64,000 bases of DNA from Escherichia phage JN02, in sequence record MT782071.1; one strand, 5' to 3'. Both the position numbers and the translations under genes were made by a program. A model generated the notes under the pieces. That model did no database searches, had not been told where the DNA came from, and worked only from the letters and a program-made list of their open reading frames with translations. Below are positions 2,636 through 14,577 of the stretch, piece by piece. The stretch's first letter is position 1. Each line of letters starts with the position of its first letter.

Positions 2636-3108
2636 TCGGTAATAAAACGTTCAACTTCATTATTCTTGGCTTTTATCTTGTCTTTACGTTCCTGTAAACT
2701 ACTTTTAACAAGATTAATAATGATGCCTATAGTACCTCCACCAATAATACCACCAACAACACTTATGATACTAGATGCTAATAAGATAGCAATAATATCA
2801 ACAAAACCGAAAGAACTCACCTTAGTACTGAAAAACCATACCGACGGTACAAATATAATCCATCCTGTTATCCATTGGCACTTATTGAAAAACTTTTCAA
2901 GCTCAGCTTGAGTTGTTCGTATTACTTCATCGATAGGTTGATATCCATTAATGTATCTGTTCACGATAATACCTGCTGGCTGGTCGATTTTAAATTCTTG
3001 ACAAATATGTTTCACTAAGTAGGATGGACATCCTGTCCAATCTACTGAATAGTATGAAATACCTTCATTGCCATCGTCTATATTAGACCAATATGTTTTG
3101 TTAATCAT
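2617..3108 (-). CDS. Hypothetical membrane protein, 163 aa, C-terminus ...ERFITECRNLR
   Basis: ORF in track; hydrophobic helices (FVPSVWFF..., IISVVGGIIGGGTIGIIINL); C-terminal F-I-x-E-C-R motif. Confidence 0.55.
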   Translation of the reverse strand: MINKTYWSNIDDGNEGISYYSVDWTGCPSYLVKHICQEFKIDQPAGIIVNRYINGYQPIDEVIRTTQAELEKFFNKCQWITGWIIFVPSVWFFSTKVSSFGFVDIIAILLASSIISVVGGIIGGGTIGIIINLVKSSLQERKDKIKAKNNEVERFITECRNLR

Positions 3109-9757: not shown

Positions 9758-10384
9758 TTACTTACGAGTTTTTGCATACTGAGCAGCGTCAGCAGCCAAA
9801 CGACCTGCCTGACGAAGTTTTTCTTTAATCGCATCGTGAAGTGGTTGAGTATACTTCAAACCTTCGATAGTCAAATAAAGACGATAAAGGTCTGGGGTAT
9901 CAAGGTTGTTGATATGTTGGCCATTGCGAAGAATATTGAATTCACGAACGAGTGAAGATGTATCGGATTCAATATCGCGAACAAGCGAAGATAGTTGTTT
10001 ATATTTTTTTTCCAGGCTAGAAGTATCAAACTTAAGAGCAGGAGCTTTAGGAGTTGCTTTTACTTCAGGCTTAGGCTCAGGTTTTGCTATTGCTTTAGGG
10101 GCCGCAGGTTTAGGAATGGTAGGAGCAGGTTTTACTTTAGGCGAACCAGATTTAGCAGGAACACCACCACTAACAATATCTTTGAATGCTTTAGAAGCTC
10201 TGTAATATTCTTTTTGGCTCGAAGTGTCGATACCGTACATGGCTTGAACGTTTTTGAAAAACTCTGTACTAGTTTTTGTACCAGAAATAGCATCATAAGC
10301 AGCTCGCCATTTCTCTTTTGTCATACGTACACCGGCTTCGGTGATTACTTCCGTTTCGGCTAAAAATTCATTAAAAGTATACAT
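9758..10384 (-). CDS. Candidate capsid-targeted protein, 208 aa, N-terminus MYTFNEFLAE, with Pro/Ala/Lys-rich linker
   Basis: ORF in track; capsid-targeting-like N-terminus; low-complexity linker GSPKVKPAPTIPKPAAPKAIAKPEPKPEVKATPKAP between two domains. Confidence 0.6.
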   Translation of the reverse strand: MYTFNEFLAETEVITEAGVRMTKEKWRAAYDAISGTKTSTEFFKNVQAMYGIDTSSQKEYYRASKAFKDIVSGGVPAKSGSPKVKPAPTIPKPAAPKAIAKPEPKPEVKATPKAPALKFDTSSLEKKYKQLSSLVRDIESDTSSLVREFNILRNGQHINNLDTPDLYRLYLTIEGLKYTQPLHDAIKEKLRQAGRLAADAAQYAKTRK

Positions 10385-10428
10385 CGATGGTCCTTAGAAA
10401 GTAGGTTTATTGTTTACTATATTTATAC

Positions 10429-10458
10429 AAAAAAAAGCCCCAACCTTTCGGAAGGGGC
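10429..10458 (-). terminator. Rho-independent terminator (hairpin followed by T8 on minus strand)
   Basis: gcccc...ggggc stem with inner GAAA-type loop; plus-strand A8 at 10429-10436 is U8 on the minus transcript. Confidence 0.6.
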
Positions 10459-10507
10459 TTTATACCTTGTCGGGGTTTCCACCTACTAGGTAAGTGTTTG
10501 TACGAAA

Positions 10508-10600
10508 CGCCGGGATTTGAACCCGGTTATTAAGTAGTTGACGCTACTCAATATTTTTAAAAGGCCATATCTCGACCATATCCGAACGTTCCGTCAAAAA
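10508..10600 (-). ncRNA. tRNA-like structured RNA candidate (canonical T-arm and 7-bp acceptor stem, non-canonical body)
   Basis: Minus strand has CCGGG-TTCAAAT-CCCGG T-arm and acceptor pairing cggaacg / cgtttcg, but D and anticodon arms do not fold canonically; sits in a 300-bp ORF-free region. Confidence 0.3.
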
Positions 10601-10761
10601 CGCCACTCGGCTTACGGCAAAGATATTTCCTCGAATCGATAATTCGGTGCGCCGTTTCTGCTGTGATGTAAGGGGATATTAACAAAACATAAAGATTTAT
10701 TAAGACCAGTCCTTACTCAGGGAACATCAGTCCGACGACTTGCCGGTAGCGACCCGGCTTC

Positions 10762-11106
10762 TTATTTTGGCATATCATCAATTTGCTCTCGACGCCGACG
10801 CCATAGATTAATCGCTTCATAAACACATTCAGCATTTGGTATATGGCGACAATAGTACAGTGATTCACGTTTCTGGAACCGATGTTGCAATGGGATTTCG
10901 TTTAAAAGGTCTTTACGGTCAAAGTATTCAAAACTAGTTAACCCGGAACGGTTTTTAAGAAACTTCCAATGGCCGAATTCATTTTGGAAATAAACGTAAT
11001 CAGCGTGTTGATATAACGAATTAATCAACCGGTCGGAAATAACTGTATCCTGTTCGTTAAAATAAAACGTTAAATCATGAACTACTAGATAAATATTGCC
11101 TTTCAT
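10762..11106 (-). CDS. Hypothetical protein, 114 aa
   Basis: ORF track uses a TTG start at 11154 that would overlap tRNA-Arg; ATG at 11106 with GAGG Shine-Dalgarno is more plausible. Confidence 0.5.
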   Translation of the reverse strand: MKGNIYLVVHDLTFYFNEQDTVISDRLINSLYQHADYVYFQNEFGHWKFLKNRSGLTSFEYFDRKDLLNEIPLQHRFQKRESLYYCRHIPNAECVYEAINLWRRRREQIDDMPK

Positions 11107-11124
11107 ATTTTCCTCACTTAAAGT

Positions 11125-11201
<77 letters not shown>

Positions 11202-11207
11202 AATATA

Positions 11208-11281
11208 TGACCCAGACCAGATTCGAACTGGTAACCTTTCCCTTATGAGGGGACTGCTGCTAACCATTGAGCTACAGGGCC
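11208..11281 (-). tRNA. tRNA with CAT anticodon (Met, or lysidine-modified Ile2-type)
   Basis: T-arm accag-TTCGAAT-ctggt, anticodon loop CTCATAA, acceptor with one wobble and one mismatch, D-arm imperfect; 6 nt from tRNA-Arg (dimeric precursor arrangement). Confidence 0.6.
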
Positions 11282-11360
11282 TAAATAACTTTCTATTATG
11301 AAAGGCACTTTAGAGCACCTTTGGTAATAGAGGGTATGAATTAATAATAACACATAATTC

Positions 11361-11876
11361 TTAAAGCAAATCAATCATTTTAACAGTCGGCAAAACAATT
11401 TCTTCTTCAATATAAGCGAATTCAACACGTTCAACTACACGCAAGAAATCATAATCATAATATTCAGAAGCATGGCCAAGAATATCAATGAGACCTTCAG
11501 ATATCTTATTACCATTCACAAAGAATAAGTCAAATACGCGTTCTTCATCTTCTTCGGATTTATTACCAAGGTCGACTTCAATATCAAAGACCTTTTTAAT
11601 GAATTCTGGATAAAGCTGGTCTGAGAACAGTCCTTCAACCAAGTATTCATAGATTAAAAGCGAGCAATCGCTGAACAGTGTATTACCACAGTAACGTTCA
11701 GCTTTAGTGCTAGAATGACGACTCTTAAATTTCTTCAAGAGATATTTAAACTGTTGGAGCTCATGCTCTTCTACACCAAATAATGTTTTGGTTTTATAGT
11801 TGTCGCCGTCATTTTCCCAAGTAGTGACATCAATTACGTAGCCCTTAGGAATTGTACTGCCTAAACGAATATTCAT
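11361..11876 (-). CDS. Hypothetical protein, 171 aa
   Basis: ORF in track. Confidence 0.6.
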   Translation of the reverse strand: MNIRLGSTIPKGYVIDVTTWENDGDNYKTKTLFGVEEHELQQFKYLLKKFKSRHSSTKAERYCGNTLFSDCSLLIYEYLVEGLFSDQLYPEFIKKVFDIEVDLGNKSEEDEERVFDLFFVNGNKISEGLIDILGHASEYYDYDFLRVVERVEFAYIEEEIVLPTVKMIDLL

Positions 11877-11880
11877 TTAA

Positions 11881-12171
11881 TCACCATACCATATTAATGT
11901 AAGTATACTCAATACATTCAAGATTTAAAGGATTCTTGAAAATATCATATTCAAGAGGGCCTTTTTCTGTTTCAATAAAGAAATCAAAGTTAACTGTGTT
12001 AAATTTATCGTCTTCGCAGAGTAATTTAACCTGTGAAGACGAACGGTCGATGTAAACCTTTTCAACTTCAAAATATGTTAAAATGCCATAATCATCGACT
12101 AGTGCTTTAGCTGCACGTTGATCGCTTTCATATCCATTCTCGACAGATTTTACTTTAGCATAAAGAATCAT
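11881..12171 (-). CDS. Hypothetical protein, 96 aa
   Basis: ORF in track. Confidence 0.55.
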   Translation of the reverse strand: MILYAKVKSVENGYESDQRAAKALVDDYGILTYFEVEKVYIDRSSSQVKLLCEDDKFNTVNFDFFIETEKGPLEYDIFKNPLNLECIEYTYINMVW

Positions 12172-12530
12172 GAGTGTTCCACCACTTCAAAAGTATGTGC
12201 ACTTACAATCTGGTACCAGTCAAAATTTTCTTCAGCATTTTTGTAGATTTCACGAAGAGCTTCAACAGTTTTTCCTGTAGCAACAAGATCATCAATACCG
12301 CCAAGAGGATAACAGTCGTAACCAGCAAACAGAAGGAAATTAATAGTTTCTGTAGGTTCTGGATGCAGTGTACCATTGTCATCGACTACTTCAAAGAACA
12401 TATAACCAGGCGATTTAGATTTAATCCAAGCCCATGCTTGAGCCGCTGAATCAAATGGTTTGCGTATCAAACGACAATCAGGGTCTTTAGAAGGATTTGC
12501 TTCAAAATCCGCATATACGTGATATTTCAT
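12168..12530 (-). CDS. Hypothetical protein, about 120 aa
   Basis: ORF track 12168..12548; Met at 12530 (MKYHVYADF) has AAGGTGAG Shine-Dalgarno. Confidence 0.55.
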   Translation of the reverse strand: MKYHVYADFEANPSKDPDCRLIRKPFDSAAQAWAWIKSKSPGYMFFEVVDDNGTLHPEPTETINFLLFAGYDCYPLGGIDDLVATGKTVEALREIYKNAEENFDWYQIVSAHTFEVVEHS

Positions 12531-12531
12531 T

Positions 12532-12738
12532 TTACTCACCTTTTGCAATTTTATCCATAACGATAGCGATTAAGCCGATTAGAAATGCTACTACCAATGA
12601 GATAGAATTTTCTGTTGTTGTCAGTAGTCCACAAATGAATCCTACAAACATCGAAAAACTAAAAGCCATTGAAGCAATTACTACAGCAACATTACGAATC
12701 AGTTCAGCGCGTTTCATTTTATTTCTCCATTTACTCAT
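12532..12738 (-). CDS. Hypothetical small membrane protein, 68 aa
   Basis: ORF in track; two hydrophobic helices. Confidence 0.5.
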   Translation of the reverse strand: MSKWRNKMKRAELIRNVAVVIASMAFSFSMFVGFICGLLTTTENSISLVVAFLIGLIAIVMDKIAKGE

Positions 12739-12754
12739 TTGATTTGATAGGACT

Positions 12755-12784
12755 ACTATATCATAGTCCTATCAGCATGTAAAC
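12755..12784 (-). promoter_or_regulatory. Early promoter cassette (-35 GTTTAC, -10 TATAGT) with perfect inverted repeat
   Basis: gataggact...agtcctatc around the -10. Confidence 0.55.
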
Positions 12785-12787
12785 TAC

Positions 12788-13075
12788 TTACAGAAGAGTT
12801 TTTGCAATAATTTTAAGCTGAGCTACAGAAATATGCTTAGCTTTAAACAGTGCAGTCTCTTCAGCAGGAGAGATAACAATAGTAGCGCCATCTTTCTTAG
12901 CAGACCATCCATCCCCTAAGTAAACAGTACCTTTTACTTCTTCGCCGTCAACCAGACTAATCATTGGTTTACCCTCACGTCCTTTATTTGCTTTAATAAC
13001 TTCGGAAGTAAGGGTTGCTTCGGTCAGAGTAGAAACGTTAGCATCAGGTGATATAAATTCTTTATAGGTTTTCAT
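12788..13075 (-). CDS. Internal protein I-like capsid-targeted protein, 95 aa precursor
   Basis: N-terminus MKTYKEFI...; L-T-E at residues 17-19 would give a 76-aa mature protein; position next to 57B matches ipI in T4. Confidence 0.55.
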   Translation of the reverse strand: MKTYKEFISPDANVSTLTEATLTSEVIKANKGREGKPMISLVDGEEVKGTVYLGDGWSAKKDGATIVISPAEETALFKAKHISVAQLKIIAKTLL

Positions 13076-13109
13076 TTTATTTCCTTGAGGTCGTTTATTT
13101 GATAGGATG

Positions 13110-13139
13110 ATAGTAACACGCCATCATCCTTATGTAAAC
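13110..13139 (-). promoter_or_regulatory. Early promoter cassette (-35 GTTTAC, -10 TACTAT)
   Basis: aggatgat / atcatcct inverted repeat around the -10. Confidence 0.5.
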
Positions 13140-13152
13140 TGTTTTGTGAAAA

Positions 13153-13838
<686 letters not shown>

Positions 13839-13842
13839 TTTA

Positions 13843-14577
13843 TTACCTTAAGGTTGTTTCAATTTTAGAATAAAGCTCTTCTAAAGAGCCGTCGTTTGTA
13901 ATAACTAAATCGCCTTCTTCAATAGGCAACCCAGCTTCTGTAATATGTTTATCGGTGGATTCCGTACCAGAGCGAACCACATGAATAACTGTAGCACCCA
14001 TCGCTCTAGCGGTTTCCATTTCATGGACTTGGCGTGTATCGGTTACAACATAGTAATCGAAATCACTTCCAATATAATCCATATAATTTAATGCAAAAAG
14101 TTTAACCCAATACATACGGTCAAATAAATTAACGACAACATCCGTACCGAGGGCTTGCATAAGACGGCGGATTGACCATGTGTCGTTGATATTATTTATA
14201 GCTTCACGCAGGGCTTCATATGGTTTAATATCTAGATATGAATACCCACCTTCTAATGATGATAATACTTTAACATTATTAATTGGTAAATATTGGCTTT
14301 GTAAATAAATTAGCGCTTCTTCCATTAATTCAATAACATCCAACTTATTGATATTTAATGGTGTTTCACGGTCGTATCCAACACCTTCAAAGTATTCATA
14401 TTTCAACTCAGTGAATACATCAGGGTTTTCGGCATGTCTACGTCCCCAGGCTATTGCTAGAGCGTCTTTAATCGGATATGCCAATTGGTATTTTACGGAT
14501 TTAAAGTTTGAATTGATGTAATCAGCAGTGGTGTCTTTACCACTACGTTTGATGCCGCTTAAAAAGATTAGCTCCAT
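13843..14577 (-). CDS. 1: Deoxynucleoside monophosphate kinase (gp1)
   Basis: MELIFLSGIKRSGKDTTADYI... P-loop-like motif and 244 aa match T4 gp1. Confidence 0.85.
   Translation of the reverse strand: MELIFLSGIKRSGKDTTADYINSNFKSVKYQLAYPIKDALAIAWGRRHAENPDVFTELKYEYFEGVGYDRETPLNINKLDVIELMEEALIYLQSQYLPINNVKVLSSLEGGYSYLDIKPYEALREAINNINDTWSIRRLMQALGTDVVVNLFDRMYWVKLFALNYMDYIGSDFDYYVVTDTRQVHEMETARAMGATVIHVVRSGTESTDKHITEAGLPIEEGDLVITNDGSLEELYSKIETTLR

Follow-up and report, generated by a model that had tools for sequence, protein, structure and literature searches.

The segment at positions 10459-10761 of this phage DNA was initially annotated as free of open reading frames (ORFs) of 60 aa or more, with a tRNA-like 3' half on its minus strand. 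This raises the question of whether it encodes a tRNA, the remains of one or a stable RNA of another kind. We analyzed the segment within the whole stretch of DNA available (64 kb, hereafter the window). The ORF list bore out the absence of ORFs of at least 60 aa from the segment. When the cut-off was lowered to 30 aa, only ORFs of 34, 42 and 51 aa touched it. The 51-aa ORF overlaps the 5' edge of the segment, and the 34- and 42-aa ORFs lie inside it. The genes near the segment are on the minus strand. Further, a 341-nt stretch of the locus folded with a z score of -6.8, and none of 100 shuffled sequences folded as well.

Positions 10400-11300 matched 713 phage records. The best match was Shigella phage JK42 (Mosigvirus mar005p1; 97.7% identity), and nearly all of the remaining matches were T-even phages of Escherichia, Shigella, Yersinia and Salmonella. 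Judged by sequence, the phage of the window is a Mosigvirus, a member of the T-even group. Species 1 and species 2 RNAs, encoded by rnaC and rnaD, have been known in phage T4 since the 1970s. We conclude, with a probability of about 0.9, that the segment carries orthologues of these two small stable RNAs, located at the 3' end of a tRNA unit and before its terminator. The features of the locus are as follows.

11281..11208, minus strand: tRNA-Met(CAU), called by ARAGORN and Rfam; upstream in the same transcription unit
11201..11125, minus strand: tRNA-Arg(UCU), called by ARAGORN and Rfam; upstream in the same transcription unit
10762..11106, minus strand: 114-aa ORF, function unassigned; inserted between tRNA-Arg and rnaD
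10765..10645, minus strand: rnaD homologue (T4 species 2 RNA), 121 nt; mapped via the RB9 ncRNA feature
10644..10640, minus strand: spacer AAUUA, 5 nt; lies between the RB9 features rnaD (ends 1619) and rnaC (starts 1625)
10639..10501, minus strand: rnaC homologue (T4 species 1 RNA), 139 nt; mapped via the annotated rnaC of T4 and RB9
10500..10462, minus strand: conserved 3' trailer with a small hairpin; alignable to T4 and RB9
10461..10426, minus strand: intrinsic terminator (hairpin and U-run), found by folding; ends the tRNA/stable-RNA unit

The terminator that had been noted beside the segment was thus found as a hairpin followed by a U-run, and the record of phage G4507 has a terminator annotated at the matching site. 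The tRNA-like 3' half of the initial annotation corresponds to rnaC, and the 5' 120 nt of the segment belong to a separate RNA, rnaD.

The identification rests on homology to annotated T4 and RB9 genes and on covariance models, which together indicate that the segment is orthologous to both T4 stable RNAs. A sensitive blastn search with the 341 nt returned 800 phage records, at least 679 of which covered at least 80% of the query. Identity to these T-even records was 89-99%, and that to T4 was about 89% across 334 nt. Where records were annotated as ncRNA under the match, the annotation was rnaC or rnaD (RB9, Kha5h and T4). The order in RB9 is tRNA-Arg, 1 nt, ncRNA rnaD ("species II RNA", 121 nt), a 5-nt gap and ncRNA rnaC (139 nt), and in T4 strain 147 rnaC is annotated at the corresponding place as "small, stable RNA; species 1 RNA". 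Positions 10639..10501 aligned end to end with the rnaC of T4 and RB9 and differed from it at 3 to 4 of the 139 nt, and positions 10765..10645 aligned with RB9 rnaD.

Covariance models were built only from the homologues of other phages, with the window excluded. The rnaC model matched 10639..10501 over model positions 1-139 (162.3 bits, E 1e-41) and had no second match anywhere in the window. The rnaD model matched 10765..10645 at full length (147.1 bits, E 7e-39). Further, rnaC lies 3' of rnaD and 5' of the terminator of the unit. The initial annotation had suggested one RNA analogous to the stable RNAs of T4. The likeness to T4 held and, given the identity of about 89% and the model matches, goes beyond analogy to orthology; the number did not hold, as the segment carries two RNAs and not one.

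The window and T4 share the gene order rnaD, 5-nt spacer, rnaC, trailer and terminator; a location that closes the tRNA unit on its 3' side and precedes the e.8/e.6 gene block; and the lengths of rnaD (121 nt) and rnaC (139 nt). They differ in several respects. In T4 and RB9 a tRNA lies 1 nt upstream of rnaD, whereas in the window the 114-aa ORF lies in between. This ORF overlaps rnaD at its mapped 5' end with the stop codon, and it is missing from the tRNA-Arg/rnaD junction in both T4 and RB9. The 3' end of rnaD is CACCG in the window versus CACCA in T4 and RB9, and the T loop of rnaC is UUCAAAU in the window versus UUCGAAU in T4. Further, the phage of the window, unlike T4, has only two tRNA genes in the 64 kb: ARAGORN and Rfam detected no tRNA in this stretch beyond tRNA-Met and tRNA-Arg. 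In T4, RNAC is visible on northern blots, both RNAs are detected by RNA-seq, and both are classed as late (PMC9697503). Nothing that we found contradicts the identification of the two RNAs as rnaC and rnaD.

To describe the structure of rnaC, we aligned 23 distinct homologues, including those of T4, RB9 and T-even phages from IMG/VR as well as those of Karamvirus PG7 and KMB17, Erwinia phage COW86c and Tegunavirus phiR1-RT. RNAalifold and pair counting yielded a consensus of 47 pairs, in which 95.5% of the cells were paired and 23 pairs showed compensatory changes among these related phages. None of 500 column-shuffled alignments was as good, and slid controls were 38-45% paired. The minimum-energy structure of the window sequence was the consensus fold (z = -4.2; 0 of 200 shuffles as good). 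In this alignment, inspected by eye, an 11-codon frame within rnaC has lost its ATG or is shifted in Karamvirus and Tegunavirus. The elements of the fold, all on the minus strand, are as follows.

10638..10632, minus strand: 5' strand of the acceptor stem, CGAUUCG; partner 10509..10503; two internal U.U mismatches
10631..10562, minus strand: arm I, a 70-nt irregular hairpin entered via a 3-bp stem
10593..10587, minus strand: internal CGGAACG, taken for the 5' strand of the acceptor by the initial annotation and by ARAGORN; the conserved fold places it at the tip of arm I
10561..10554, minus strand: A/U-rich single-stranded linker UUUAAAAA; with the preceding CU it gives CUUUUAA
10553..10528, minus strand: hairpin II, a 10-bp stem with the loop CGUCAA (the hairpin of the initial annotation)
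10526..10510, minus strand: T arm, CCGGG-UUCAAAU-CCCGG (the T arm of the initial annotation)
10509..10503, minus strand: 3' strand of the acceptor stem, CGUUUCG, followed by UA; no encoded CCA

Thus, rnaC is a tRNA mimic with an acceptor stem and a T arm as well as an extra hairpin; a 70-nt arm replaces the D and anticodon arms. A contact between the T loop and the UGG internal loop may exist in addition. The T arm of the initial annotation is present and backed by compensatory changes: two of the five pairs of its stem are compensatory (CG/UA and GC/UA/AU), and 100% of the cells are paired. The same is true of the 10-bp hairpin, whose strands UAUUGAGUAG and CUACUUAAUA flank the CGUCAA loop (8 of 10 pairs compensatory, 98.7% of cells paired in the 23 homologues). 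The sequence of arm I is very conserved, 11 of its 25 pairs (helices 2-4) are compensatory in the 23 homologues, and the single-sequence minimum-energy fold agrees with the consensus. The sequence of the linker differs among genera.

The acceptor stem had to be redrawn. The initial annotation paired CGGAACG (10593..10587) with CGUUUCG (10509..10503) in a 7-bp stem. These strands can pair in the window, but the pairing is not conserved: it shows no compensatory change, contains an A.C mismatch in 11 of the 23 homologues and fails in Tegunavirus. We therefore rejected this stem on covariation. The conserved stem uses the 5' end of rnaC (10638..10632). Its third pair is GC in 12 and AU in 11 of the 23 homologues, its second pair occurs as three types, and its U.U positions become U-A and C-G in Tegunavirus. 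The column of the internal CGGAACG covaries within arm I (UG in 12, UA in 7, AU in 3 and GC in 1). Accordingly, rnaC has both an acceptor stem and a T arm of the kind that marks a tRNA, and both covary.

With regard to rnaD, we aligned 18 homologues of T-even phages and Dhakavirus. The first 48 nt and the last 25 nt were almost invariant in the 18 homologues, and the central hairpin occurred in three unrelated versions. The consensus comprises four helices, namely H1, H2, H3 and the base of the central hairpin. The elements of rnaD, again on the minus strand, are as follows.

10758..10742, minus strand: H1, GCCGG-GUCGCUA-CCGGC; 5-bp stem capped by an invariant loop of 7 nt; closing pair covaries
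10739..10733, minus strand: 5' strand of H2, GUCGUCG; partner 10654..10647, predicted by RNAalifold
10719..10666, minus strand: central hairpin, a variable module whose base covaries
10654..10647, minus strand: 3' strand of H2, CGGCG(C)AC, closing a long-range helix and followed by the 2-nt tail CG

H1 has the consensus RCCGG-GUCGCUA-CCGGY; its closing pair is AU in 13 and GC in 4 sequences, and four of its five pairs are compensatory once distant homologues are included. H2 is invariant in the T-even phages. In two distant homologues one of its pairs changes from G-C to C-G, and in distant homologues its two outer pairs are broken. In H3, which pairs UGUU with AGCA, U-A alternates with A-U (10 versus 7 sequences). 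When the distant copies were added, 13 of 24 pairs of rnaD were compensatory, in an alignment that was fitted to the model. Thus, rnaD has a non-tRNA fold, which consists of a 5' hairpin and a rod that is closed by a long-range helix and carries a swappable central hairpin. The 3' end of rnaD is CCA in two of the 18 homologues (T4 and RB9 only), CCG in 10 (including the window), CAG in four and CCU in two. Since the ends vary in this manner, an encoded CCA is not a family-wide property.

The two RNAs are distributed differently among phages. In Tequatrovirus and Mosigvirus, rnaC and rnaD are adjacent. In Dhakavirus, rnaD is joined directly to the trailer, which is kept, and the covariance model detected no rnaC there even at E up to 1. 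In Karamvirus, Tegunavirus and the Erwinia phage, rnaC is located between tRNA genes inside the tRNA array. Further, the rnaD model detected a divergent rnaD-like RNA elsewhere in the array of Karamvirus and the Erwinia phage; the copy of PG7 directly follows tRNA-Asn, the upstream neighbour of tRNA-Asp (28.9 bits, E 3e-6). With the rnaC model, a search of all phage loci collected found nothing more distant than the homologues detected by nhmmer. The 5,426 E. coli genomes searched contained no match to rnaC or rnaD, neither a homologue nor a host RNA that they might mimic. Two viral-contig matches to the 3' motif of rnaD were rejected as chance matches in GC-rich coding DNA. Thus, rnaC and rnaD are independent modules, either of which can occur alone and which occupy separate places in Karamvirus-type arrays.

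Having a tRNA-like end and a location among tRNA genes, rnaC may be compared with the type II tRNAs (Leu, Ser and Tyr; RF00005). As in these tRNAs, the ends of rnaC form a 7-bp acceptor stem, the T stem is the canonical one of 5 bp and carries a UUCRAAU loop, and a long extra hairpin stands one base 5' of the T arm. Unlike them, rnaC has no D or anticodon arm (the 70-nt arm stands instead), its extra hairpin has 10 bp, its acceptor stem contains two U.U mismatches and no CCA is encoded. The combination of an acceptor/T-arm mimic with a non-tRNA body is also found in tmRNA, mascRNA, YrlA (bacterial Y RNAs) and viral tRNA-like structures. Such mimics allow tRNA enzymes to recognise the RNA. YrlA differs in that its ends form a Ro-binding stem, not an acceptor stem as in rnaC. 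The Rfam models of tmRNA, mascRNA, YrlA and viral tRNA-like structures gave no match over threshold in the segment. Further, neither ARAGORN nor Rfam detected a tmRNA in the window, and there was no tag reading frame.

The predictors of tRNA genes gave divided results at rnaC, and these bear on a reading in which the 3' 94-95 nt (10594..10500) are an unusual or degenerate Lys-like type II tRNA, either decoding or a dead gene, whose anticodon loop would be CUUUUAA(A) and whose long variable arm would be the 10-bp hairpin. At default settings, ARAGORN called no tRNA at rnaC in the window or in T4, so that a standard predictor did not resolve the segment as an ordinary type II tRNA. With the threshold relaxed, it returned 'tRNA-?(ttta)', with a 4-base anticodon, in both. 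In relatives, its default calls covered the 3' two-thirds of rnaC as a tRNA of 94-96 nt, namely Lys(ttt) in phage 55 and G4507, Phe(gaa) in COW86c and Met(cat) in PG7, and some GenBank records carry such calls at the site of rnaC. The internal pairing ACGGAACG/CGUUUCGU, which has 8 bp in T-even phages, also speaks for a tRNA. However, the anticodon called differs by lineage, and four of the nine D- and anticodon-stem pairs (two of four and two of five, respectively) never form standard pairs in the 23 homologues. The internal acceptor shows no compensatory change, whereas arm I and the terminal acceptor covary, and the annotation of the mature T4 RNA gives it a length of 139 nt and a start at UCGAUUCG. 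In addition, CCA is not encoded, and Rfam found no tRNA in 10459-10761 either at the gathering threshold or at E up to 10. At the latter setting it returned terminator-like noise and a sub-threshold mascRNA on the T arm (14.7 bits, E 9), and no Rfam family matched rnaC, rnaD or any other part of the segment over threshold. We therefore discarded the type II cloverleaf of ARAGORN, because its D and anticodon stems are unpaired across homologues and its anticodons are inconsistent. The remark that canonical D and anticodon arms are lacking agrees with the silence of Rfam and of default ARAGORN, and the degenerate tRNA that had been offered as an alternative found no support in the predictors or in the stems of the cloverleaf. 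A tRNA or tRNA relic at this site is therefore extremely improbable.

Two further explanations dispense with a tRNA. The segment might act only in cis, as a 3' untranslated element that processes or stabilises the upstream transcript and yields no RNA acting in trans. It stands last in the unit, right before the terminator, its own promoter was not found, and its strong structure could block 3' exonucleases. Against this, the T4 RNAs accumulate as discrete stable species (PMC9697503, PMC2330249), arm I is conserved far above the needs of a structural block, and in other genera the modules stand alone inside tRNA arrays, away from terminators. Because the modules occur alone in arrays and the RNAs are discrete in T4, we regard a purely cis role as very unlikely. 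Alternatively, rnaC, rnaD or both might be sRNAs that base-pair with phage or host mRNAs. The variable hairpin of rnaD (10691..10678) contains a 14-nt perfect complement to an e.2-like gene (3105..3092), which encodes a membrane protein and is covered at codons 2-6; about 0.1 such complements are expected by chance in the window. No further complement of at least 13 nt to rnaC or rnaD was found in the window. However, the complement is located in the non-conserved part of rnaD, and the conserved parts are mostly base-paired. In RB69, which is closely related and has the same gene order, the longest complement between rnaD and the start of e.2 is 5 nt, and both sides differ from those of the window. 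Since the 14-mer shrinks to 5 nt in RB69, we treated it as chance, and base-pairing sRNAs appear improbable here.

We return to the reading of the segment as orthologues of T4 rnaC and rnaD and ask how the RNAs may be made. The primary transcript of the tRNA cluster in T4 is approximately 1.75 kb long and gives rise to eight tRNAs as well as to species I and II RNAs; transcription stops after the species I gene (PMC2330249). In the window, no late promoter of their own (TATAAATA) was detected on the minus strand upstream of rnaD, from 10762 to 14192, and the late-promoter motif at 10427..10420 serves the next gene. The lack of a late promoter up to 14192, together with the conserved terminator, makes read-through the likely source of the two RNAs. 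Transcription that starts at the tRNA promoter and passes through tRNA-Met, tRNA-Arg and the 114-aa ORF would thus continue into both RNAs, which would then be excised by the tRNA-processing machinery of the host. Processing as tRNA-like units fits the place of rnaC among tRNA genes in Karamvirus, Tegunavirus and the Erwinia phage, that of the rnaD-like RNA after tRNA-Asn in PG7 and the 1-nt distance of rnaD from tRNA-Arg in T4 and RB9.

In T4, RNase P processing at rnaC is known from the older literature. In the model that we propose, RNase P would cut at the acceptor stem of rnaC, the acceptor/T-arm module being of the kind that this enzyme recognises. The same cut, made at the 5' end of rnaC, would set rnaD free as well, still carrying a 5-nt tail that exonucleases could then trim. 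This proposed release of rnaD from rnaC resembles the processing of dimeric tRNA precursors in T4. The route to the 5' end of rnaD may differ from that of T4, because the 114-aa ORF and not a tRNA lies directly upstream. The products, rnaC and rnaD, would accumulate as stable RNAs that cannot be charged.

The roles of rnaC and rnaD have been stated to be unknown in papers up to 2025 (among them PMC3014915, 2010; PMC9697503, 2022). A recent study reported a convergent SNP in rnaD during the adaptation of a T4-like phage to one E. coli strain (PMC12685909, 2025). We tentatively prefer, at below even odds, a reading in which the tRNA-like module is a handle for processing and stability, with a protein involved in handling tRNA or RNA as the trans target of the strongly conserved arm I of rnaC and of the rnaD core. 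Such an effect would be accessory, host-dependent and non-essential. Deletions of the tRNA region of T4 are viable. Given these deletions and the existence of phages that possess rnaD and lack rnaC (Dhakavirus), any role should be dispensable.

A more doubtful and rather unlikely idea is that rnaC, and perhaps rnaD, is a counter-defence decoy, a tRNA mimic that would titrate a host enzyme recognising the shape of tRNA. The target could be an anticodon nuclease, for instance, or some other defence toxin directed at tRNA. The linker CUUUUAA of T-even rnaC matches the anticodon-loop sequence of E. coli tRNA-Lys(UUU). The decoy idea fits the observation that rnaC can be drawn in a second tRNA-like register with the internal acceptor strand; the CUUUUAA motif and this second register are not conserved outside the T-even phages. 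It also fits the convergent change in rnaD upon host adaptation (PMC12685909).

The finding is a correct rediscovery of the known rnaC and rnaD of T4 and does not define a new kind of element. Most records, including that of the closest relative JK42, leave the region unannotated. Others carry spurious hypothetical proteins or "tRNA-Lys" and "tRNA-Met" calls, which are an artefact of the predictor. The present analysis adds structures backed by covariation, the separability of the two modules and divergent rnaD-like RNAs in Karamvirus-type arrays, and it exposes these mis-annotations. The role of these abundant RNAs is a question approximately 50 years old, and mutagenesis would most obviously be aimed at the conserved arm I of rnaC and at the invariant rnaD core.

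The two stable RNAs, rnaC and rnaD, are separable modules. rnaC is cleanly absent from Dhakavirus VR5 and dhaeg (loci L006 and L007, about 1197-1395), in which rnaD runs straight into the trailer and terminator. Further, the upstream side of rnaD varied in its neighbor. The window carries the following reading frame between tRNA-Arg and rnaD.

10762-11106, minus strand: 114-aa ORF, phrog_3355, function unknown

This ORF had no Pfam match, and it ends in a stop codon that overlaps the first mapped nucleotides of rnaD on the minus strand. In contrast, a tRNA abuts rnaD in T4 and RB9, and in other T-even phages differing sequences reach right to the conserved rnaD start AAGAA (rnaD alignment A4). 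Judged from these sequences, genes appear to be inserted preferentially at the tRNA-Arg/rnaD junction, making it an apparent insertion hot spot.

In rnaC, one lineage (L018, L054, L062; columns 129-135 and 81-84 of the rnaC homologue alignment A3) possessed a non-canonical T loop, UGCAUGC, and the internal-loop UGG beside the arm I closing helix was also altered, to CUCG. Because both elements changed in the same lineage, the comparison hints at a tertiary contact resembling that between a D-loop and a T-loop, although in a single lineage. The terminator scan marked the tip of arm I (GCGUUUUUGAC, window 10601-10619, minus strand) as terminator-like. However, this segment lies within mature rnaC and belongs to a covarying helix, and is thus probably not a terminator.

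Public annotations place tRNA-Lys or tRNA-Met over the 3' two-thirds of rnaC at the following positions.

Phage 55 (L123), 1007-1100
G4507 (L122), 767-860
PG7 (L004), 1554-1648

ARAGORN returned the same calls for these three phages. We rejected them as artefacts of the tRNA-like module; the anticodons disagree between lineages.

Directly 3' of the terminator U-run, we noted the following motif.

10420-10427, minus strand: T4 late-promoter-like TATAAATA

It lies upstream of a 208-aa ORF (10384..9758, minus strand). The motif occurred 19 times in the whole window versus 7.7 expected, and most copies fell within 37-51 kb on the plus strand.

The variable hairpin of rnaD (10678-10691, minus strand) is perfectly complementary over 14 nt to an e.2-like membrane protein gene (3092-3105, minus strand), the complementary part comprising codons 2-6. 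This match was not conserved in RB69, in which the longest complement was 5 nt, and is thus probably due to chance or lineage-specific.

Besides rnaC and an rnaD-like RNA, the tRNA array of PG7, a Karamvirus, contains conserved non-tRNA spacers.

L004, 404-647
L004, 724-880
L004, 1040-1253

Homologues were found in L003, L008, L018, L054, L068 and L093. Such spacers of Karamvirus-type arrays are 140-240 nt long, with 74-99% identity between phages, and have no counterpart in the window. They could represent additional stable RNAs.
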